Position numbers and translations under genes: made by a program
Source of the DNA: Patescibacteria group bacterium
GTDB lineage: Bacteria > Patescibacteriota > Patescibacteriia > Patescibacteriales > XYC2-FULL-47-12
DNA length: 13,677 nucleotides
Direction of reading: 5' to 3'
Assembly (NCBI GenBank): GCA_041666885.1
Contig: JBAYGB010000009.1
Location: forward strand, 1-13,677
Shown here: positions 3,005 through 13,677 of the stretch, piece after piece
How positions within the stretch are numbered: the first letter of the stretch is position 1
Layout of the letters: each line of letters begins with the position of its first letter
The notes under the pieces: model-generated
Databases searched by the model: none
Told to the model about the DNA's origin: nothing
What the model saw: only the letters and a program-made list of their open reading frames with translations

Positions 3005-3050
3005 TTTGTAGACATATTTTTTACTAAAATTAGCTATTTATTATGATTAT

Positions 3051-3440
3051 CTATGGCACGTATTTATTAAATTCTTTTTTGGCCGCTATCGTTTCCTTTA
3101 TTTTTGGCAGTTGTTTTAACCGCTTAAATATAATATAAGCCCAAAAACCTTGGCCTATCGCCCACAGTAAAAACCAAAAGCGGGAGGATAAAAACGGCAC
3201 TGATTCATAGCAGAAAAATAACAACAGCGCGCCGATGATTGTGCCGGTCAGCGCGAAGTTATAACCCGAAAGCCAAAGTTTCGCGTATAGCGTTTTTTTG
3301 TTTTGGTTATAAAATTTCCAGGTAACGACAATGGAGGCGAGAAAAATAATGACAATAACTATCAACGCATATTGCCACATTTTAGTTAACGGACCCGGGT
3401 ACAAGCTAAACCACAGTTTAAAAGTGAAGAAGTTGGACAT
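3051..3440 (-). CDS. Small hypothetical membrane protein (about 3 TM helices)
   Basis: 129-aa ORF with ATG at 3440, hydrophobic helices (ALIVIVIIFLASIVVTW, ALTGTIIGALLLFFCY, FWFLLWAIGQGFWAYIIF) and no overlapping alternative. Function unknown. Confidence 0.5.
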   Translation of the reverse strand: MSNFFTFKLWFSLYPGPLTKMWQYALIVIVIIFLASIVVTWKFYNQNKKTLYAKLWLSGYNFALTGTIIGALLLFFCYESVPFLSSRFWFLLWAIGQGFWAYIIFKRLKQLPKIKETIAAKKEFNKYVP

Positions 3441-3449
3441 AAGTTTAAT

Positions 3450-3540
3450 TATCTCAAATTATTCCAAAAACCAAATTATTTCAAAATCCCGCCTATGGGC
3501 GGGCATTTGAGATAGTTTGGAATAATTTGAAGTTTGATTT
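3450..3540. repeat. Repeat-armed palindromic element: CAAAT/CCAAA-type arm, GC hairpin CCCGCCTATGGGCGGG (3488-3503), complementary TTTGG/TTTGA-type arm. Possible minus-strand terminator for the methyltransferase gene
   Basis: Left arm TATCTCAAATTATTCCAAAAACCAAATTATTTCAAAAT. Right arm CATTTGAGATAGTTTGGAATAATTTGAAGTTTGATTT contains the reverse complements of the left-arm units. On the minus strand the hairpin is followed by ATTTTGAAATAATTTGGTTTTTGG. Confidence 0.6.
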
Positions 3541-3542
3541 TA

Positions 3543-4097
3543 TTAATGTTTCAAAAATACTATTCCGAAATGATACGCGCCGGCGGAAAATTCTTCCATC
3601 AGTTCCAGCCCGAACCGCTGGCAGACGGCGACCAAATTTTCTTTGTTCAAACGCTCTTCAATGGATGGTCCGAACGGAGTGGCGATTTTTTTCCAGTCAA
3701 TAACTAATAGTTTGCCGCCGCGCTTTAACAGGCGCGTTGCTTCCCGTATTATTTCCGACCGCTTGTTTGATTGGAATAATATATTAATCAAGAGGGCGAT
3801 GTCAAGAGAGGAGCTTTCAATTTTGGTCGCCCCGAAAATTTCCAGATTGGACCAAACGGTTTTCACCTGTTTGATATTTTCTTGATTCGCGCGCCGCTCA
3901 ATATTAGCCAAGACATCTTTTAAAATATCCACCGCGTAGACCAAGCCGTGTTCGCCGACAGCGGAAGCCATGGGAAACACAAAATGGCCGGTGCGGCCGC
4001 AACCCAAATCGCCGACCGTCATTCGTTCGCCCATTTGCGTTTTTGTAACGACTATTTGCGGGTCAATCAGCGCGTTTCCTCCTGTTACTTTGGACAT
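3543..4097 (-). CDS. Class I SAM-dependent methyltransferase (small, Methyltransf_11-like)
   Basis: 184 aa. Motif I VGDLGCGRTGHF (GxGxG), a post-I acidic residue (VYAVD) and LLKRGGKLLVIDW (motif III-like). Confidence 0.8.
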   Translation of the reverse strand: MSKVTGGNALIDPQIVVTKTQMGERMTVGDLGCGRTGHFVFPMASAVGEHGLVYAVDILKDVLANIERRANQENIKQVKTVWSNLEIFGATKIESSSLDIALLINILFQSNKRSEIIREATRLLKRGGKLLVIDWKKIATPFGPSIEERLNKENLVAVCQRFGLELMEEFSAGAYHFGIVFLKH

Positions 4098-4170: not shown

Positions 4171-4213
4171 TATACAACAAAAAAATTAAAATTAAAAATG
4201 AAACTCTGTATTT

Positions 4214-4329
4214 TGTCATTCCCGCGCAGGCGGGAATCCCTGCCTACCGGCAGGTCAAACTTATTTTATCATTAGATTCCCGCTTTCGCTCGCCTCGTTG
4301 AAGCTCCGGCGAAGCGGGCGGGAATGACA
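4214..4329. repeat. GC-rich palindromic element family 1, copy 1 (TGTCATTCCCGCG...CGGGAATGACA termini, 116 bp)
   Basis: TGTCATTCCCGCGCAGGCGGGAATC at the 5' end and GCGGGCGGGAATGACA at the 3' end. Internal extra hairpin CCTGCCTACCGGCAGG. Sits in the gap between the methyltransferase start and the rnhB stop. Confidence 0.85.
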
Positions 4330-4341
4330 GTAAAAAAACAC

Positions 4342-4953
4342 TTACAAAAGTTTTTTCACCGGTTTGAATGTTTTTCGGTGTATTTCGCACGGCCCGTATA
4401 ATTTTAACGCGTTCAAATGCAATTTTGTGCCGTAGCCTTTATGTTGGTTGAAAAAATAGCGGGGATATTTTAAATGCATTTCTTCCATCATCGCGTCGCG
4501 GGCGACTTTGGCGAGAATGGAGGCGGCGGCAATGGAAAAAATCAGGCCATCGCCGTTAACTATCGCTTTTTGCGGTAAAGAATAATTGGGCAAGGGCAGA
4601 TTGCCGTCTACCAAAATAATTTGCGGCTTTAATTTTAAAATTGAAAGCGCTTTTTTCATCGCCAAAAAACTCGCCTGTAAAATATTAATGCGATCAATCG
4701 TTTCGTGGTTGCACAAACCGATGCCAAAACCTGCGGCGCGCTCCATAATCAGTTTAGCCAAATCAGTTCGTCTGTCCGCGCTTAATTTTTTTGAGTCATT
4801 TACAGCGTTTAATTCCGCCGGCACTTCGGAAAAATCAAAAATCACCGCCGCAGCGACTACCGGTCCGGCGAGCGGTCCGCGGCCGGCCTCGTCAATGCCG
4901 GCAATTACATTATAACCTTGTTGTTTTAAGTTCGTTTCGTAGGAAAAATCCAT
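4342..4953 (-). CDS. rnhB: Ribonuclease HII
   Basis: GIDEAGRGPLAGPVVAAAVIFD and the VNDSKKL / LVDGN motifs are diagnostic of RNase HII. The ORF table starts at a TTG (4959). The first ATG (4953-4951) gives MDFSYETN..., which aligns better with RnhB N-termini. Confidence 0.9.
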   Translation of the reverse strand: MDFSYETNLKQQGYNVIAGIDEAGRGPLAGPVVAAAVIFDFSEVPAELNAVNDSKKLSADRRTDLAKLIMERAAGFGIGLCNHETIDRINILQASFLAMKKALSILKLKPQIILVDGNLPLPNYSLPQKAIVNGDGLIFSIAAASILAKVARDAMMEEMHLKYPRYFFNQHKGYGTKLHLNALKLYGPCEIHRKTFKPVKKLL

Positions 4954-4966
4954 AGACAATATCCAC

Positions 4967-5057
4967 TGTCATTCCCGCGAAAGCGGGAATCTCATGTTTT
5001 GATAATCTTTAGATTCCCGCTTCCTGCCTGCCGGTAGGCAAGGTCGCGGGAATGACA
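4967..5057. repeat. GC-rich palindromic element family 1, copy 2 (91 bp), filling the gap between rnhB and the 126-aa ORF
   Basis: TGTCATTCCCGCGAAAGCGGGAATC ... AGATTCCCGC ... CCTGCCTGCCGGTAGGCAAGG ... GTCGCGGGAATGACA. The internal CCTGCC..GGCAGG hairpin is inverted relative to copy 1. Confidence 0.85.
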
Positions 5058-5062
5058 ATTGA

Positions 5063-5443
5063 TTAAAACGGCCACCAACTTTTCTTCCTCGGTTGCTCTT
5101 TAACAACTTGCGCAAAGGATTCGTTTTTGGCGGCATCAGTTTGTCGTTCCGCCATCGCCTGCAAACGATCAAGTTCTTCTTGCACGAGCGGGCTGTCGTA
5201 TTCGCCCGCGTGCGCGGTTTGCCCTTCGTAGCGGGTTTGGCGCTGGTCCAAATGCAGATTAAAAGTTGTTTGTCCTCCTTGTTCAAAAATATAACAATGA
5301 AAGCGCGGATAAAAATCGCGCGTTAAGCGGCGCGCAAAACTTTCTTGTCCGCTTTGGCGATCATGAATATATGTATAGCCGGCGCGGCGGAGAAAATTTG
5401 CCGGAGATTCTTTTAAGTTTTGGGAAGAAATGGTAAGGCGCAT
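5063..5443 (-). CDS. Conserved-looking hypothetical protein of 126 aa with a basic/aromatic core (FLRRAGYTYIHDRQSGQESFARRL...YPRFHCYIFEQGG...FNLHLDQ)
   Basis: Clean ATG at 5443, protein-like composition, and no competing ORF. I do not recognise the family. The RDFYPRFH segment loosely resembles an Rx4-6H motif, which is weak evidence. Confidence 0.5.
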   Translation of the reverse strand: MRLTISSQNLKESPANFLRRAGYTYIHDRQSGQESFARRLTRDFYPRFHCYIFEQGGQTTFNLHLDQRQTRYEGQTAHAGEYDSPLVQEELDRLQAMAERQTDAAKNESFAQVVKEQPRKKSWWPF

Positions 5444-5494
5444 GTAATTAGTTTATAAAATTACTGTTAAATTGTTTTATTGTTAAATTATTAA

Positions 5495-5630
5495 CCCCTC
5501 CGTCCCGAGCGACTCGGGACACCTCCCCTTATAAAGGGGAGGAATAATGCGGAACAACGACAATGTTAAATCGGCATTTATTCTCCCTCTTTATAAGGGG
5601 GAGTGTCCGACGTCTCGGCGGACGAGGGGG
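5495..5630. repeat. About 136-bp GC/G-tract-rich imperfect palindrome with ~41-bp arms, each composed of two hairpins
   Basis: Arm 5502-5542 GTCCCGAGCGACTCGGGACACCTCCCCTTATAAAGGGGAGG. The reverse complement of arm 5583-5623 is GTCCGCCGAGACGTCGGACACTCCCCCTTATAAAGAGGGAG. The arms are separated by a 40-bp AT-rich centre. Runs of G of length 4 or more lie in and downstream of the right arm (5597-5675). Confidence 0.8.
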
Positions 5631-5708
5631 TCGGGAAACGCCGAAGGCAAAGGGGTTGAGGATTTAGAGGGGGTTAACAATGGAGCAATGGAACAATCTT
5701 ACTATTTG

Positions 5709-6635
5709 TTATTTTTCCAGCCACTTCCTCGCCGCCATCGCCGCCATACCGCCGAAACCGGCCGAAGTGATGGTTTGACGATAAATAAAATCGGCGCATT
5801 CGCCTGCGGCAAAGACACCTTCAATATTGGTGTAGACATTTTCCGTGACAGCGATATGACCTTCTTTTTCGTTTAAGGTTAACTGTCCTTTAAAAATTTC
5901 AGTATTGGGAATATGCCCGATAGCGAAAAACAAGCCATCAAGCGGCAATTCGGAAATCACATTCGTAACAATATTTTTTATTTTTACGCCGGTCAGTCTG
6001 GCTTCTCCCAGATATTCCGTTACTTCACTGTTTAAAATAAGCTCAATTTTTTTATTGGCGAACGTGCGCTGTTTCATAATTTCGCTCGCGCGGAATTCAT
6101 CGCGGCGGTGGATTAAATAAACTTTGTCGGCGAATTTGGTCAGAAAATTGCTTTCTTCCATCGCGCTGTCGCCGCCGCCGATAACGGCGACTGTCTTGCC
6201 GCGATAGAAAAAACCGTCACAAGTCGCGCAGATATGCAGGCCGCGCGCTAATAATTCTTTCTCTTTCGGCAGGTTTAAAGTGCGATAGCGGGAGCCGGTC
6301 GCGACAATCACCGTTCGCGCCTGATAAATTTCATTACCGACAAAAATTTTTTTCGGTTCTTCTGTAAAATCAACTTTGTCCGCCGCGGCGAATTTTATTT
6401 CCGCGCCGAAGCGTTCCGCTTGTTTTTGCATGTTTTGCATCAGTTGCGGGCCGGCGACTCCTTCCGGAAAACCGGGAAAATTTTCTATCACCGTAGTTGT
6501 TGTCGGCTGTCCGCCGGGTTGCGGGCCGGCTAAAACCAGAGGCGCGAGACCGGCGCGCGCGGCGTAAATCGCGGCAGTGTAACCGGCCGGTCCGGAGCCG
6601 ATGATAATGAGTTCGCGAATGTTGTCAGTAGACAT
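5709..6635 (-). CDS. trxB: Thioredoxin-disulfide reductase
   Basis: N-terminal FAD motif IIGSGPAGYTAAIYAARAG, redox-active CATCDG, and NADPH motif VAVIGGGDSAMEE. I chose ATG 6635 (MSTDNIRELIIIGSGPAG) over the ORF-table ATG 6677, which lies inside palindromic element copy 3. Confidence 0.92.
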   Translation of the reverse strand: MSTDNIRELIIIGSGPAGYTAAIYAARAGLAPLVLAGPQPGGQPTTTTVIENFPGFPEGVAGPQLMQNMQKQAERFGAEIKFAAADKVDFTEEPKKIFVGNEIYQARTVIVATGSRYRTLNLPKEKELLARGLHICATCDGFFYRGKTVAVIGGGDSAMEESNFLTKFADKVYLIHRRDEFRASEIMKQRTFANKKIELILNSEVTEYLGEARLTGVKIKNIVTNVISELPLDGLFFAIGHIPNTEIFKGQLTLNEKEGHIAVTENVYTNIEGVFAAGECADFIYRQTITSAGFGGMAAMAARKWLEK

Positions 6636-6671
6636 AAAGATAATTGTTAATTGTGTTAAACATTTAAATAT

Positions 6672-6735
6672 TGTCATTCCCGCGCAGGCGAGAATCTACT
6701 CTTACTCTTAGATTTCCGCCTGCGCGGGAATGACA
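6672..6735. repeat. GC-rich palindromic element family 1, copy 3 (minimal 64-bp form) in the divergent trxB/infB promoter region
   Basis: TGTCATTCCCGCGCAGGCGAGAATC, then TACTCTTACTCTT, then GATTTCCGCCTGCGCGGGAATGACA. The arms are near-perfect reverse complements (24/25). The centre is a TACTCTT 7-mer x2. Confidence 0.85.
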
Positions 6736-6792
6736 GGATAAAAAAATTCTATATCAATATCATATCTTAACTAAACTTTTTAATCAATTTTC

Positions 6793-6830: not shown

Positions 6831-8813
6831 ATGAATATAACCGAATTAGCCAGAAGATTAAAACTCACCACGAGCGAGTTGTTTGACACTTTGCCTCAGC
6901 TCGGTTTTGACATTGGCCGGCGGGCGATTAAAATTGACGACCATATCGCTTATAAAATCGTCGCCAACTGGTCAATTTACAAAAAACAGCTGGACGCCAA
7001 AAAAATCGCCGCGGGTGAAATGGCGGCGCCGGTCGCCAATCCGGCCGACAAAAAAACGATTACCATCCCGCCGCAAATCGTGGTGCGGGATTTTGCCGCG
7101 CTAGCCGGTTTGAACGTCAGCAAGGTTTTGACGGAATTGATGAAAAACGGAATTTTTATTTCCATGAATGAAAAAATAGATTTTGACGCCGCGTCCATTA
7201 TCGGCGCGGATTTGAATTTGGAAGTGCTTTTGGACGAGACGGCCGACATCAGCGGACAAAGCGACAACAAATTAAAAAATATCATGGATAAACAGGACAA
7301 AGCGCATTTGGAAGCGCGGCCGCCGGTAGTGGTGGTAATGGGACACGTTGACCATGGTAAAACCAAACTCTTGGACGCCATTCGTGAAACCAACGTAGTG
7401 GCGGGGGAAGCGGGCGGCATTACGCAGCATATCGGCGCGTACCAAATTGAACAGCGGGGTCAGACGATAACTTTCATTGATACTCCCGGACACGAAGTTT
7501 TTACCGCCATGCGCAGCCGCGGAGCGAAAGTGGCGGATGTCGCGATTTTGGTCGTGGCCGCCGATGACGGCGTAAAACCGCAAACCGTTGAAGCGTATCA
7601 TATTATTGAACAGGCAAAAATTCCGTTTGTCGTCGCGATTAATAAAATTGACAAACCCGAGGCGGATATTGACCGCGTCAAAAGCGAATTGTCCAATCAG
7701 TTGCACATTACGCCTGATGATTGGGGTGGAAAAACAATGTGCGTGCCGATTTCCGCCCGAGATAAAATCGGCATTGATAAACTTTTAGACGCGGTATTGT
7801 TTTTAACCGAAATGGAAAAAGAAAAAATTATCGCGAACCCGAATGCGTCGGCGGTCGGCACGGTGGTGGAATCAAACGTGGATAAAGGCGAAGGGCCGGT
7901 CGCGACGATTTTAATTCAAAACGGCACTCTGCGCGCCGGTGAGATTCTTTGTTTTAACAATGAACCTTTGGGCCGGGTGCGCATCATGAAAAATTATCGG
8001 GGAGAGATAGTGCCAGTTGCCACGCCGGCCATGCCGGTTAGAATATCCGGCTTAAAATCCAGCCCGAGCATCGGCGATATTGTGGAAGTTGTTTGCGCCG
8101 GGGAAACGGCGACCGGCAGCGGCAAAAAAATGCGCTTGGGTAAAATTAAAAAAGGAAATTTTAAATCGGCGACGACGTCAACCGCCGCCTCGGCGGAAAA
8201 TAATGCCAGCGTAAAGTTTGTTAATATTGTTATTCGTACGGATGTCTTGGGTTCCGTTGAAGCGATTGAAGAGGCGTTGGAAAAATTGGGCACGGCGGAG
8301 GTAAAAGTAAAAATAATAAAAAAAGGTTTGGGAAACTTTACGGAAAGCGATGTGCATACGGCCTTCGCGGCCAAAGCCTGCGTTTTGGGATTTAACGCGG
8401 AAATCAATCATGCGGTCAATCTGCTCGCGCGTGAAAAAGGCGTGGAAGTAAAAAGTTTTTCCATTATTTACGAATTGGTTGATTTTATTAAACAAAAAAT
8501 GGAAGTGTTATCCCCCAAACCGGTCGTCAGAAAAGGATTGGGAACGATAAAAGTTTTAGCCATTTTTAAAACCGGCAATAACAGCCAAATCATCGGCGGT
8601 AAAGTGGAAAGCGGATTGATTGAACTTAACGCCAAAATTGAAGCGGTGCGCGATGATATGGTTATCGCGATTGGCGAATTGGTTGGGTTGCAGTCAGGAA
8701 AACAAAGCGTCGTTGATGTTGCGAGCGGGCAGGAATGCGGCGTGGAATTCAAGGGCGAACCGGTGATTAAGTCGGGCGATGTACTGAGAGTATATAAAGA
8801 AATTACGAATTAA
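6831..8813 (+). CDS. infB: Translation initiation factor IF-2
   Basis: IF2_N-like N-terminus. G-domain motifs [12 protein letters not shown] (G1), DTPGHEVF (G3) and AINKID (G4), followed by IF-2 domain II through C2. 660 aa. Confidence 0.95.
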
Positions 8814-8960
8814 GAATTAAGAATTACGAATGAGGAATTAAGAATGCAGAATGCAAATTAAGTTAAAAGTGAAAAGTTAAAATTGTTTGCCTCGCCGCAG
8901 CTTCTAGCGAAGGCGGGTTAAATTGTTTGAAAATTAGAAATTGAAAATTGAAAATTTTTA
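8800..8960. repeat. Degenerate heptamer array (GAATTAA/GAATGCA/TTAAAAG x ~12), then bulged hairpin 8895-8916 flanked by direct repeats GTTAAA(A)TTGTTTG, then (GAAAATT)x4
   Basis: 7-nt periodicity is visible from 8807 to 8889 and from 8929 to 8956. The infB stop codon is part of the first GAATTAA unit. The TTG at 8941 used by the ORF caller for rbfA lies inside the GAAAATT array. Confidence 0.8.
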
Positions 8961-8964
8961 TCAT

Positions 8965-10267: not shown

Positions 10268-10364
10268 AATAGTTAATCAGTTGAACAGTTAATTAGTTAA
10301 ATAGTTTTTGATATTTTATAACAACTAATTAACTATTCAACTAAGTAACTAATCAACTAAAACT
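10268..10364. repeat. Repeat-armed palindromic element filling the whole nrnA-clpP gap: (AGTTRAWY)x5 left arm, TTTGATATTTTAT centre, (NYAACTAA)x5 right arm
   Basis: Left arm AGTTAATC AGTTGAAC AGTTAATT AGTTAAAT AGTTTTTG. Right arm ACAACTAA TTAACTAT TCAACTAA GTAACTAA TCAACTAA AACTATG. The arms are approximate reverse complements with period 8. Confidence 0.8.
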
Positions 10365-10943: not shown

Positions 10944-10969
10944 TTTTGATAAATTTCCATGAATTATGA

Positions 10970-10996
10970 GGCGGCGTCACTTTGATGTCGCCTTTT
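10970..10996 (+). terminator. Rho-independent terminator after clpP
   Basis: 9-bp stem GGCGGCGTC/GATGTCGCC (two G-U wobbles), 5-nt loop, followed by TTTTGTT. Confidence 0.5.
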
Positions 10997-10999
10997 GTT

Positions 11000-11113
11000 A
11001 GATATTGGATATTAAGATATTAGGATATTGCGCTGCGAAAGCAAGAAGTTTATTATGATGATAATACTATTTCCATGCGTTGCGAATATTCAATATCCTA
11101 ATATTCAATATCT
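11000..11113. repeat. Repeat-armed palindromic element, GGATATT family, copy A (clpP-lgt gap)
   Basis: Left arm AGATATT GGATATT AAGATATT AGGATATT (11000-11029). Reverse complement of right arm 11084-11113 is AGATATT GAATATT AGGATATT GAATATT. A 54-bp unique centre separates them. The right arm ends 12 nt before the lgt ATG. Confidence 0.85.
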
Positions 11114-11125
11114 TGTATTACAATT

Positions 11126-12025
11126 ATGAATTTTTTACATTTTTATCTTCCCCAGCCAATTTTATTTCACTTAGGCGTGATAAATGTTTATTGGTACGGT
11201 TTTTTAATGGCGCTGGCGATACTCGCCGGATTGCTCGTGAGCGTGCGCGTGGCCAAGTGGCACGGAGTTGATAAAGAAATTATTTATGATTTATTTTTTT
11301 ACGTTGTTATCGCCGGCTTTATCGGCGCGCGTATTTTTTATATTTTGTATAACCCGGAATATTTTTGGCAGCATCCGTTAGATATTTTTAAAATTTGGCA
11401 AGGCGGAATTGCGATTCACGGCGCGTTGATTTTTGGAATTTTGGCAATAATTTGGTTTGTGCGGCGCATGCCGCCGATAGAGACGTTGCATTGCAACGTC
11501 TCTACGATGAAAAACAATTTTTGGTTGTTGTCCGCAATCATCGCGCCCGGTCTTGCGCTGGGACAGGCGATTGGTCGGTGGGGTAATTATTTTAATCAGG
11601 AATTATTCGGCCGACCGACTGATTTGCCCTGGGGCATTCCGATTGATTTGATAAATCGACCCGCCGGATTTGAACAGTTTACTTATTTTCACCCAACGTT
11701 TTTGTATGAGAGCGTTGGAGATTTAACGATATTCATATTATTATTATTGACGCATTGGTTTTTTGCGCATAATACAAGAAACGGGGAACGAGTAACAAGT
11801 AACGGGCAAAAACCGTTAAATAATCATTCTCTCATTACTCATTACTCATTACTCATTACTTTATATTTATTACTGTATTCTTTATTGCGTTTTATGATTG
11901 AATTTTTGCGCATTGACCCGACCGCCGGCAGTATTTTTGGGGTGCGGGCGACGATGGGGCTGAGTTTGTTAATAGGCGTTGGCGTGTTATTATATTGGCG
12001 CGCCATATTTTATTTAAAAAGATGA
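11126..12025 (+). CDS. lgt: Prolipoprotein diacylglyceryl transferase, carrying an in-frame repeat-element insertion in a C-terminal loop
   Basis: N-terminal VYWYGFLMALAIL and the Lgt signature GQAIGRWGNYFNQELFGRPTDLPWGIPID. Compared with E. coli Lgt, about 23 extra residues (AHNTRNGERVTSNGQKPLNNHSLITHYSLLITLY) lie between the sixth helix and the LRFMIEFLR segment. Confidence 0.88.
   Translation: MNFLHFYLPQPILFHLGVINVYWYGFLMALAILAGLLVSVRVAKWHGVDKEIIYDLFFYVVIAGFIGARIFYILYNPEYFWQHPLDIFKIWQGGIAIHGALIFGILAIIWFVRRMPPIETLHCNVSTMKNNFWLLSAIIAPGLALGQAIGRWGNYFNQELFGRPTDLPWGIPIDLINRPAGFEQFTYFHPTFLYESVGDLTIFILLLLTHWFFAHNTRNGERVTSNGQKPLNNHSLITHYSLLITLYLLLYSLLRFMIEFLRIDPTAGSIFGVRATMGLSLLIGVGVLLYWRAIFYLKR
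11790..11874. repeat. Intragenic repeat-armed palindromic element inside lgt: (AGTAACR)x2, then hairpin AACGG-GCAAAAA-CCGTT, then (CATTACT)x4
   Basis: AGTAACA 11791-11797 and AGTAACG 11798-11804. Centre hairpin 11801-11817. CATTACT at 11833, 11840, 11847 and 11854 (reverse complement AGTAATG), plus degenerate units TCATTCT and TATTACT on either side. The reading frame is preserved and encodes LITHYSLLITLY. Confidence 0.85.
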
Positions 12026-12148: not shown

Positions 12149-12415
12149 ATGCCTAACATCAAAGCGGCCATGAAAGCCTTGCGCAAAAGCAAAAAAGTAA
12201 AAATAACGAACGACGCCGTTAAAAACAACATTGGACGGCTGATCAAAAAATCGCGGAAAGCGATTGACGCTAAAGCCGATACCGCCAAAGATTTGGTTCA
12301 GCAAACGGTAAAAGCGCTGGATAAAGCGGTGCAGAAAAAAATATTAAAGCCGAACACCGGCAACCGCAAGAAATCAAGATTGATGAAAAAACTCAACCAG
12401 ATAATCGCAAAATAA
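12149..12415 (+). CDS. rpsT: 30S ribosomal protein S20
   Basis: 88 aa, Lys/Ala-rich: MPNIKAAMKALRKSKKVKITNDAVKNNIGRLIKK...LKPNTGNRKKSRLMKKLNQI, which matches the S20 consensus (MANxKSAxKRxR...N...RKKS...). It lies divergent to holA, as in many bacteria. Confidence 0.9.
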   Translation: MPNIKAAMKALRKSKKVKITNDAVKNNIGRLIKKSRKAIDAKADTAKDLVQQTVKALDKAVQKKILKPNTGNRKKSRLMKKLNQIIAK

Positions 12416-12433
12416 CAAAGTTTGTTAAAATAA

Positions 12434-12466
12434 AAAAATCCCCTAGAAATAAGGGATTTTTTATTT
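12434..12466. terminator. Strong bidirectional rho-independent terminator after rpsT
   Basis: AAAAATCCC-CTAGAAATAA-GGGATTTTT followed by TATTT. An A-run upstream and a T-run downstream allow function on both strands (rpsT on plus, holA on minus). Confidence 0.7.
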
Positions 12467-12545
12467 AATATTAGGATATTGGATATTAAGATATTAAATG
12501 CCGCGATTTTGAAAGTTCTGTCGATATCATAATATCCTAATATCC
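12467..12545. repeat. Repeat-armed palindromic element, GGATATT family, copy B (rpsT-holA gap)
   Basis: Left arm AATATT AGGATATT GGATATT AAGATATT. Reverse complement of right arm 12524-12545 is CTGGATATT AGGATATT ATGATAT. It shares an identical 24-mer GATATTGGATATTAAGATATTA with copy A. The centre differs (AAATGCCGCGATTTTGAAAGTTCTGTCG). Confidence 0.85.
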
Positions 12546-12576
12546 AGTCTCTGGCAGAAAAAAGCAGAAGTATTGA

Positions 12577-13593
12577 TTAAGGATTAGCGGCGAATAATAA
12601 AGTTAGGCCGGTTAATCCGTCGCCCTGTCCGGTTTTTATCTTGTAATCAAGCTCGGTAATTTGCGTTAGAATATTTTTTAAATAATCCATATTGAAATTG
12701 CGCGTTTGCGGCATGGTTTTTTGCACGACAAACGGATGCAGTTTGAGCGCGGCGGCGATTTGCGCCGGCGCTTGTCCGGCAATAGTTTGTTCTTTGATTT
12801 GCAAGATTATTTTAAACTGGCGGGAAATCATCGCCATAATTTGCTGCAAACTCGCGCCCGCCTCCAATTCGTTTTCCAATAGGGAAAAAAATAAAGCCTT
12901 GTTTTTATTGCCCAGCGCGTCGGTCAGCGCGAAAATGTTTTCTTCCGCCGCGCCTTTAATCAGTTGCCTTGCGTCTGCCAAAGTTATTTCCGCGCCGCCT
13001 TGCTTTTGGGTAAAATTAATCAATTTTTCCAATTCATTATGCGCTAACCACAGGTTCGATCCGGTCGCGCTGATTAACAAACTTAACGCCTGCGGATTGA
13101 CGCGCAAACCGGCCTTGCTCGCGTATTGTTTAATCCAAGTTTGCAGTTTTAAATTATCCAAGCCGTTGAACTGCTCGGAAAATTTTTGCGTTTTTAAATA
13201 CTCAAATAGTTTTTTGCGCGCCACAGTCAACTTGCCTGCCGAAGAGGCAGGTTTTTTTTCGCCATACTTTTTGCTTTCCAGGTTTCTCGCTTCATAAAAA
13301 ATCAACGAATTTTCATTATTATCTTTTTCTAATTTTTGCAGGAAAGCCAAAAGCGGTTTGAAAATCGTTTCTTCTTTGTGGCTGAATAAATCGGAAATGA
13401 TCAGCAGACGTTTTTCCGCCAAAAGCGAGCCGGAAGAAATTTTGCCGTTTATTTCATCCAGATTGGTTTTACTCCCGTCAATACTGACAACGTTGTTGCC
13501 TTGCGGGTCGCGCTGTTTTTTAAATTGTTCAATCAGCGCATTCAATTTTTGCCGGCTGCGGAAATTATCGGCGCCGTAAAGAAAGATAATCAC
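12577..13593 (-). CDS. holA: DNA polymerase III delta subunit
   Basis: N-terminus (V/M)IIFLYGADNFRSRQKL... matches the HolA consensus (iyllyGeD.fl). 338 aa with helical C-terminal domains. The start codon is GTG at 13593, and no in-frame ATG lies nearby. The gene abuts the GAATTAA array. Confidence 0.8.
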   Translation of the reverse strand: MIIFLYGADNFRSRQKLNALIEQFKKQRDPQGNNVVSIDGSKTNLDEINGKISSGSLLAEKRLLIISDLFSHKEETIFKPLLAFLQKLEKDNNENSLIFYEARNLESKKYGEKKPASSAGKLTVARKKLFEYLKTQKFSEQFNGLDNLKLQTWIKQYASKAGLRVNPQALSLLISATGSNLWLAHNELEKLINFTQKQGGAEITLADARQLIKGAAEENIFALTDALGNKNKALFFSLLENELEAGASLQQIMAMISRQFKIILQIKEQTIAGQAPAQIAAALKLHPFVVQKTMPQTRNFNMDYLKNILTQITELDYKIKTGQGDGLTGLTLLFAANP

Positions 13594-13677
13594 AAATTAA
13601 GAATTAAGAATTAAGAATTAAGAATTAAGAATTAAGAATTAAGAATTAAGAATTAAGAATTAAGAATTAAGAATTAA
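13594..13677. repeat. Perfect heptamer microsatellite (GAATTAA)x11 preceded by AAATTAA, immediately upstream of the holA start; the array runs off the window end
   Basis: 13601-13677 is exactly 11 x GAATTAA with no mismatch. It is the same unit as the degenerate array after infB (8807-8889). Confidence 0.95.

Follow-up and report, generated by a model that had tools for sequence, protein, structure and literature searches.

A nested palindrome between trxB and a conserved open reading frame of a Patescibacteria bacterium as a probable copy of a dispersed hairpin repeat

Why would nearly the whole gap between two co-oriented bacterial genes be taken up by a single nested palindrome? We addressed this question in a 13,677-nucleotide (nt) stretch of DNA, hereafter the window, from a bacterium of the Patescibacteria (candidate phyla radiation, CPR) whose nearest named relatives are Candidatus Falkowbacteria. 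The window represents 13.7 kb of a 15.6-kb metagenome contig (European Nucleotide Archive ERZ27249449 k141_900543), and the palindrome lies between trxB and a conserved 126-amino-acid (aa) open reading frame (ORF), here ORF126. A first-pass annotation made from the letters alone had described a double-hairpin palindrome followed by dense runs of G, and had offered as candidate roles a structured small RNA (sRNA) or 3′ untranslated region (3′-UTR) element, a cruciform or protein-binding site, and G-quadruplex DNA. With a probability of about 0.7, we consider the feature to be one copy of a dispersed, non-coding and non-autonomous palindromic repeat of the REP/REPIN/MITE type (repetitive extragenic palindromes, their hairpin-forming doublets, and miniature inverted-repeat transposable elements). 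In its basic unit, a C-rich head, ACCCCxCC, would precede a hairpin whose 5′ arm is a run of C and whose 3′ arm is a run of G. Two such units, inverted around a variable spacer, would make up a doublet able to fold as a single long hairpin or a cruciform.

Architecture of the palindrome

The gap between trxB and ORF126 occupies 5444-5708 (265 bp), and nearly all of it (5461-5702) forms a single nested palindrome whose onset lies 7 nt past the trxB stop codon. All features of the previously described double hairpin are present, including its inner inverted arms (5494-5547 / 5578-5631; 54 nt each, 74% complementary, 30 nt apart), but the palindrome is larger than first annotated, being nested in an outer inverted repeat (5466-5498 / 5670-5702; 33 nt, 76%) built of AT-rich 8-mer arrays. 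From ORF126 towards trxB, in plus-strand coordinates, its parts are as follows.

5461-5494, AT-rich array adjoining ORF126, in 8-bp units TTACTGTT AAATTGTT TTATTGTT AAATTATT AA
5493-5501, left terminal head AACCCCTCC (family consensus TACCCC(A/T)CC(C))
5502-5520, extra GC hairpin GTCCCGAG-CGA-CTCGGGAC (GTCCCGAGCGACTCGGGAC), nested between the left head and the core hairpin
5522-5542, core family hairpin CCTCCCC-TTATAAA-GGGGAGG (CCTCCCCTTATAAAGGGGAGG)
5543-5582, AT-rich center (spacer), 40 nt, particular to the window copy
5583-5603, core hairpin in the opposite orientation, CTCCCTC-TTTATAA-GGGGGAG (CTCCCTCTTTATAAGGGGGAG), with one stem mismatch
5605-5623, extra GC hairpin GTCCGACGTCTCGGCGGAC, imperfect partner of 5502-5520
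5624-5631, right terminal head GAGGGGGT, complementary to the left head
5632-5666, extra 35-nt stretch with the direct repeat GAGGGGGT on either side
5640-5648, small hairpin GCC-GAA-GGC inside the 35-nt stretch
5650-5657, degenerate head AAGGGGTT inside the 35-nt stretch
5667-5674, second copy of the head GAGGGGGT, then TTAA
5674-5702, AT-rich array adjoining trxB, TTAACAAT GGAGCAAT GGAACAAT C...

The array on the ORF126 side is the outer inverted partner of the array on the trxB side, and the second head copy with its TTAA pairs with 5491-5500 (TTAACCCCTC...GAGGGGGTTAA). Written as a string, the head-plus-hairpin unit reads TACCCCTCCC-N4-CCTCCCCTTATAAAGGGGAGG. Of the two left-arm 19-mers, one taken from 5502-5520 and the other from 5522-5542, the window contains one occurrence each, against a chance expectation of 0.

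Predicted folding of the gap goes far beyond that of shuffled sequence. The whole-gap RNA reaches -106.9 kcal/mol on the plus strand (z -7.7) and -96.6 kcal/mol on the minus strand (z -8.4), and single-stranded DNA of 5490-5680 gives z -6.9, with 0 of 200 shuffles as good in each case; the predicted RNA and DNA folds pair both arms with each other. The dense downstream G-runs are real (runs across the element at 5597-5601, 5626-5630, 5633-5635, 5652-5655 and 5669-5673), but most of them are copies, repeated or degenerate, of the motif that ends the element (GAGGGGGT/AAGGGGTT), with 5632-5666 as their main source. The background against which they were said to stand out is not especially AT-rich, at ~42% GC in the window and 45% in the gap.

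A hairpin unit dispersed across phyla

The repeat reading also draws on other genomes. We searched genome contigs, one genome per GTDB species, for a 21-nt degenerate pattern of the core hairpin and recovered at least 119 matching loci, against an estimated ~17 chance matches; the exact 21-mer of 5522-5542, the commonest hairpin of the family, is present at many loci in other genomes. Most of the matches listed share traits that lie outside the search pattern: a head ACCCCxCC, i.e. TACCCC(A/T)CC(C), placed 3-5 nt upstream, a second, opposite hairpin after a 15-45-nt spacer, and a tail GG(G/A)GGGGTA (GGxGGGGT). Half units, with a head and one hairpin, occur as well. Among the matches listed, cyanobacteria are commonest (Nostoc, Chamaesiphon, Microcoleus, Desmonostoc, Scytonema), and Patescibacteria appear as DP16D_bin.9 (L039, L090), Nomurabacteria (L043), Falkowbacteria bin.303 (L045, L126), Magasanikbacteria GW2011_GWC2_37_14 (L049, L106) and RA.bin129 (L101), alongside Deltaproteobacteria, Nitrospirota and others. 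The family can be dense locally, with 9 hairpins per 8 kb at L090 and 7 per 8 kb at L049. Viral contigs, when scanned, gave 2 isolated hairpins whose membership of the family is doubtful.

A profile of 35 copies from outside the window matches 5521-5603 on both strands (nhmmer; E = 1.4e-10 plus, 1.2e-08 minus), with no further match in the window. In the family as a whole, 97.1% of stem cells are paired, compared with 55-78% when partners are slid, and 6 of 15 stem pairs have changed on both sides while loops and spacers vary; helix 1 is partly fixed by the search pattern, which counts against the repeat reading, and the independent evidence consists of helix 2 together with the heads and layout. 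Covariation, the absence of which would in part have refuted the first-pass annotation, exists among family members; there it favors a hairpin-forming repeat over an RNA confined to this locus. The window spacer has no significant similarity to other family spacers (p = 0.05-1.0), and a 21-mer from the window center, searched in metagenome contigs, returned only a chance match inside an unrelated ORF, so that the spacer is no repeated sequence in that collection. Because spacers are dissimilar, the repeated or mobile unit is the head plus hairpin, in inverted doublets, and not the whole 140 bp.

Relative to the canonical layout, the window copy has an extra small GC hairpin in each arm, a partly duplicated right end, and a position inside another palindrome. 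Its heads are set off from the core hairpins by the nested 19-nt GC hairpin, where 3-5 nt is usual; a nested extra GC hairpin is also found in the Falkowbacteria copy at L045. The element ends as TTAA-CCCC...GGGGG-TTAA in the window, many copies end as TA-CCCC...GGGG-TA, and others as AA-CCCC...GGGG-TT.

Family copies also lie within genes. A prmC-like methyltransferase ORF contains two complete elements, both in frame (L049 3700-3781 and 3927-4017). In L090, a phosphoglucomutase ORF contains two in-frame half units, through which its product gains ...TPSPLQGEGEGGV... and ...AIPPPLQGGGEKGV... (the L090 elements listed with these insertions are 3041-3076, 3362-3400 and 2115-2135). The peptides so added in L049 and L090 are rich in P and G and 13-30 residues long. 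By analogy with the palindromic elements of Rickettsia, in-frame gene insertions of this kind read as a signature of invasive selfish DNA and argue against a dedicated RNA function of the unit.

Often, a unit has its G-rich portion, either 3′ arm or head, 4-15 nt ahead of a start codon, e.g. GGAGGGGTAaattATG and GGGGAGGagaaaaATG (start-codon-proximal units at L090 398-436, L101 872-1000, L018 1587-1615 and L139 1474-1503). There it could serve as a Shine-Dalgarno sequence that the C-rich partner could mask. In the window, the G-rich part is ~50 nt from the ATG of ORF126, so this reading does not apply.

What relatives carry between trxB and ORF126

The gap belongs to a gene string that is conserved in relatives (IF2 in the opposite orientation, then trxB, the ~126-aa ORF, rnhB and a methyltransferase gene), but what it holds differs from one relative to the next.

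L003 (TrxB 88% identical), the element
L004-L007 (TrxB 82%), an HD-domain gene and one hairpin whose loop is likewise TTATAAA
L008-L010 (TrxB 70%), a GIY-YIG gene between the terminal repeats of a second repeat, family 1
L131 and L132 (ORF126 76%), a 23S_rRNA_IVP gene flanked by inverted 8-mer arrays of the window kind
L133 and L134 (ORF126 74%), 31 bp only, no element

Among the relatives examined at this gap, the element is thus confined to the lineage of the window and L003, and given such variable content it is not an ancestral or fixed part of the operon. The 31-bp gap of L133 and L134 indicates that trxB and ORF126 are normally co-transcribed, making the element intercistronic; these two loci lack the element, but with ORF126 only 74% identical they are too diverged to place the insertion point. 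Counterparts of the AT-rich arrays flank a different insert in L131, which suggests that the arrays probably pre-date the element. The inverted 8-mer arrays may mark a cassette site with exchangeable content. In L131, inverted arrays (AAATTGTT)n / (AACAATTT)n occupy 3518-3591 and 3970-4000 on either side of the 23S_rRNA_IVP gene, which encodes a four-helix bundle. The array on the ORF126 side in the window may contain the promoter of that ORF; -35 and -10 candidates picked by hand in the AT-rich array were weak and are not relied on.

Between the window and L003, the two closest genomes, identity is 83.4% over trxB at all positions (66.6% at third codon positions) and 85.0% over ORF126 (70.1% at third positions). 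Within the gap it rises to 97.6% in the element center, 93.8% in the arm on the ORF126 side and 97.1% in the AT-rich array on that side, and it falls to 76% in the array on the trxB side (5674-5702) and 50% in the final 16 nt ahead of the ORF126 ATG. The trxB-side arm of L003 has been rebuilt: a family-variant hairpin, CCCCCTCC-TTAGCAA-GGAGGGG, takes its place, and 60 nt are missing, namely the GTCCGAC... hairpin (5605-5623) and the stretch with the duplicated head (5632-5666). One arm is therefore turning over between these genomes. The hairpins that both share show one compensatory change, a C-G to T-A exchange that converts GTCCCGAG/CTCGGGAC into GTTCCGAG/CTCGGAAC in L003, and one disruptive change. 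Elsewhere in L003, a different intergenic region has a 24-nt match to the trxB-side array. Identity along the contigs is a mosaic, with some stretches at 90-94% and most at 76-84%, a pattern that suggests recombination between the window and L003 lineages. Identity to L003 is 93.7% over a holA-like gene (12577-13593) and 90.3% over S20 (12149-12415).

A DUF559 gene accompanies family copies

A non-autonomous repeat would depend on a nuclease acting in trans for its spread, and the best candidate is a DUF559 protein. An ORF of this family (PF04480, E about 1e-31) lies beside or between family copies at six loci selected by the hairpin pattern (L090, L045, L061, L127, L094 and L017), which come from four phylum-level groups and include Patescibacteria, Nostocales/Chroococcales and Nitrospiraceae. 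Moreover, 24 of 120 homologues of the L045 DUF559 protein, most of which sit on very short contigs, carry N- or C-terminal tails that are the translated head plus hairpin (TPxPP, PSLVKEG, PLLRKEG and similar); the same test gave 0 of 120 for TrxB homologues and 2 of 117 for ORF126 homologues. When four DUF559 loci were picked by protein alone, from tail-less homologues, all four had family-type hairpins at most 125 nt from the gene. Over all ten DUF559 loci, the stretches up to 200 nt from the gene hold 3.74 hairpins per kb, ~20 times the 0.19 per kb found in the rest of the same loci.

Complete elements flank the DUF559 genes rather than contain them, and no cognate autonomous insertion sequence (IS) with the same terminal repeats was seen in the loci examined. 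The closest solved structure for the protein is 3HRL, an 'endonuclease-like protein'. DUF559 is a large domain family for which we found no assigned role in the literature, nor any report linking it to repeats. On these sequence grounds, we put forward DUF559, a Vsr-like PD-(D/E)XK endonuclease, as a candidate partner enzyme of the family, a new hypothesis that describes an association rather than a demonstrated mechanism. A fuller picture, which we offer tentatively and would not put at even odds, has a cosmopolitan REP-like family with DUF559 as its dedicated partner, nicking or maintaining the hairpin repeats, with the window copy as an orphan that has been partly exapted and family 1 as gene-less derivatives of GIY-YIG cassettes. 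Should the link hold, it would give DUF559 a directly testable function and would help to explain the nested palindromes that pack the intergenic regions of tiny genomes.

Weighing the explanations

How, then, might the element have come to lie in this operon, and what might it do there? Under the repeat reading, it would have been inserted at the center of the AT-rich inverted array between trxB and ORF126 and would be maintained as selfish DNA. It would be transcribed with trxB and ORF126 as part of an operon on the minus strand, and its very stable multi-hairpin in the mRNA might protect the trxB 3′ end or lessen read-through, as REP/bacterial interspersed mosaic element (BIME) and Correia sequences do. 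Any mRNA-stabilizing or attenuating role would be secondary. Given its conservation, the half nearest ORF126 may have acquired a local role. Among the functions first proposed, the cruciform or protein-binding site comes nearest to this account, the element being a hairpin- or cruciform-forming DNA that is probably recognized by protein.

Two rivals place the function in RNA. One holds that 5460-5582 is a locus-specific structured RNA, either a 5′ leader or cis-regulator of ORF126 or an independent sRNA, perhaps an exapted repeat. It draws on the 96% identity of this 123-nt block to L003, set against third positions at 66.6% (trxB) and 70.1% (ORF126), on the compensatory change in the GTCCCGAG hairpin, on the z-scores of -7.7 and -8.4 for the gap, and on block borders that differ from the borders of the repeat itself. 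Yet the comparison involves two sequences only, with one compensatory and one disruptive change; other parts of the two contigs reach 90-94% identity, and the conservation can therefore be accounted for by a recombination tract; none of the other relatives examined has the block in this gap; and its hairpins are family repeats that occur in unrelated contexts. Nor do the scans favor an RNA gene. Rfam 15 gave 0 matches across the window at gathering thresholds and nothing over family copies at 9 other loci, its best permissive hit being a eukaryotic microRNA hairpin (26.9 bits against a threshold of 100); a tRNA/tmRNA search found none; and over 5000-6000 no sigma-70-like promoter was detected, nor any intrinsic terminator within 5444-5708. 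We regard the structured RNA as unlikely, and the earlier suggestion of a dedicated sRNA or 3′-UTR element finds no support in view of the lack of an Rfam match, the absence from the gap of more distant relatives, and the recurrence of the same hairpin-and-head layout at unrelated loci and within ORFs of other genomes. The second RNA-level rival has the element act on trxB first and foremost, by terminating or attenuating transcription or by stabilizing the 3′ end of the mRNA. Its position 7 nt past the trxB stop and its very stable stem-loops on the transcribed minus strand (-96.6 kcal/mol) would suit such a role, and such action, by 3′-end protection or reduced read-through, is known for REP/BIME and Correia elements (PMC3184786). 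However, a terminator is at odds with the empty scan of the gap and with the sequence after the hairpins, which is GGAGGGG, AATAA or TGTCC and offers no U/T tract, a 31-bp gap suffices in relatives, and elsewhere the same units lie inside ORFs and upstream of start codons; as a primary role this is improbable.

The remaining two rivals arise from the G-runs and from an overlapping reading frame. G-quadruplex (G4) formation by DNA or RNA of 5597-5673 is suggested by G4Hunter scores of 1.36 (5610-5641) and 1.68 (5646-5678) and by four runs of three or more G at 5626-5673, which make a motif if loops of up to 20 nt are allowed. No motif appears on either strand with loops of at most 7 or at most 12 nt, equal scores are reached in coding regions (7391-7427, 11558-11585 and 11933-11966), and the C-rich strand is the transcribed one here. 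The G-runs are moreover the 3′ arms and heads of the palindrome, so matched C-runs are available for pairing, and we consider a quadruplex highly improbable. As for a plus-strand gene of 109 aa (5547-5876) starting in the palindrome center, the reading frame from the same ATG is open in L003 (141 aa, L003 10601-11026, minus strand), but the two share only their first 11 residues, which fall inside the conserved DNA block, and end differently thereafter. The 109-aa frame has no Pfam match, is uncalled in the source records of both the window and L003, and is mostly antisense to trxB; we give next to no weight to its being coding, in agreement with the first-pass view of it as an artefact.

Several observations also weigh against the repeat-copy reading that we prefer. 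The main unexplained point is the conservation of 5460-5582, 96% identical to L003 over 123 nt where flanking third codon positions stand at 67-70%, which simple neutral selfish DNA does not predict; it may reflect constraint at the locus (e.g. an ORF126 promoter or leader) or a recent recombination tract. The window, and likewise the 15.6-kb contig, holds a single copy, and L003 holds one orthologous copy in 21 kb, with none in L005, L008, L131 or L133; repetition within the element's own genome is thus unproven. No target-site duplication could be defined, and no pair of empty and filled sites was available at nucleotide resolution; for the Nostoc host repeats, no empty sites were found among the loci examined, all of which had been chosen as element-bearing. 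Finally, no DUF559 gene is present in the window or in the examined loci of its relatives, and the association could alternatively mean that DUF559 genes or repeats favor each other as landing sites.

Neighboring genes and other palindromes

Two genes border the gap.

5063-5443, minus strand, ORF126, conserved
5709-6635, minus strand, trxB, 308-aa protein on record

The 322-aa trxB ORF first listed begins too early, the true start being the second ATG at 6635; the longer frame starts within a family-1 repeat, which its first 14 codons overlap (6636-6677). A search of Pfam and NCBIfam gave no match for ORF126, so its gene function offers no clue to a cis-regulatory role of the element.

Family 1 is defined by TGTCATTCCCGCG-N4-CGGGAATC and its inverse, and, as first annotated, has no sequence relation to the palindrome. 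Three gene-less inverted pairs are present in the window.

4210-4238 / 4318-4338, family-1 pair
4963-4991 / 5046-5066, family-1 pair
6668-6696 / 6711-6744, family-1 pair

In the trxB gap of L009 and L010, family-1 terminal repeats bracket an intact gene for a 72-aa GIY-YIG nuclease (L009 4623-4984), and in L008 the GIY-YIG reading frame is apparently disrupted (4711-5068). Because these repeats bracket GIY-YIG genes in relatives, the window copies look like gene-less, MITE-like cassette derivatives. The family-1 core, ATTCCC-N8-GGGAAT, presumably resembles the Neisseria dRS3 repeats.

Nearly every intergenic region of the window forms a comparably strong long palindrome (3441-3542, 8814-8964, 10268-10364, 10944-11125 and 12416-12576). 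These consist of inverted arrays of AT-rich 7-8-bp tandem units (e.g. GATATTGG/GATATTAA, AGTTAATC) around a GC hairpin, with predicted fold energies of -0.15 to -0.5 kcal/mol per nt. A 7-bp unit, GAATTAA, is repeated in tandem over 8786-8866, after the IF2 stop codon, and over 13566-13677, at the window end.

Discussion

At the level of the locus the outcome is modest, in that a striking palindrome is probably a selfish repeat copy in an operon and not a new RNA gene or a G-quadruplex. What is noteworthy lies at the level of the family: its spread across phyla, its in-frame insertions into housekeeping genes of CPR bacteria and its association with DUF559. A near-identical 21-nt hairpin with its heads spans the streamlined, ultra-small Patescibacteria and the large genomes of cyanobacteria. 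In the literature we did not find the hairpin or head strings, the published sequences of cyanobacterial small dispersed repeat (SDR) families (Elhai et al. 2008) lying outside the comparison. We likewise found no description of MITEs or palindromic repeats in Patescibacteria, and a MITE census (PMC11602168) does not mention them.

The closest parallel is with the REP/BIME/REPIN-RAYT systems of E. coli and Pseudomonas, in which RAYT denotes the REP-associated tyrosine transposase. In those systems, as in the present family, each palindrome is short, imperfect and rich in GC and carries an unpaired head that is conserved; most copies are intergenic, and both kinds occur singly or as an inverted doublet around a spacer that folds into a long hairpin, as do the 54-nt, 74% complementary arms of the window; such inverted REP doublets define the REPIN architecture (Bertels & Rainey 2011, PMC3116915). 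The heads differ: the hallmark of REP sequences is a GTAG or CGTC tetranucleotide beside the palindrome (Di Nocera et al. 2013, PMC3733652), whereas the 5′ bases of the present family are TAAC, TCGC, CCAG, CTAA and similar, and GGGACA in the window. Unlike REP sequences, family units are also found in frame inside genes and keep a near-identical hairpin over several phyla, and in the genome of the window a single copy is seen on the one contig covered.

MITEs such as Correia/NEMIS of Neisseria, ERIC and the cyanobacterial Nezha (PMC3184786) resemble the element in size (~140-240 bp), in their terminal inverted repeats and lack of coding capacity, in strong predicted secondary structure, in lying between co-oriented genes, in presence that varies among relatives, and in ends that are often TA. 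With terminal inverted repeats, a length below 500 bp and no coding capacity, the element fits the MITE definition in these respects, but unlike MITEs it has no established target-site duplication and no autonomous IS found with the same ends, its spacer is specific to the copy, and the repeated unit is half of it. Rickettsia palindromic elements (RPE) insert in frame into conserved protein-coding genes. The copies in the prmC-like and phosphoglucomutase genes are similar in this respect and likewise add short peptides, though the organisms differ and the window copy itself is intergenic. Cyanobacterial SDRs are reportedly nested in larger repeats; Nostoc copies of the family are short hairpin repeats within other repeats, and the window copy is likewise nested in a palindrome. 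Finally, the small nuclease gene embedded among family repeats elsewhere recalls the REPtron, a RAYT gene flanked by REPs. RAYT is an HUH tyrosine transposase, whereas the gene found among the present repeats is DUF559, of the PD-(D/E)XK fold; if the partnership is real, it would represent a second REPtron-type system, after RAYT/REPIN, built on a different nuclease fold.

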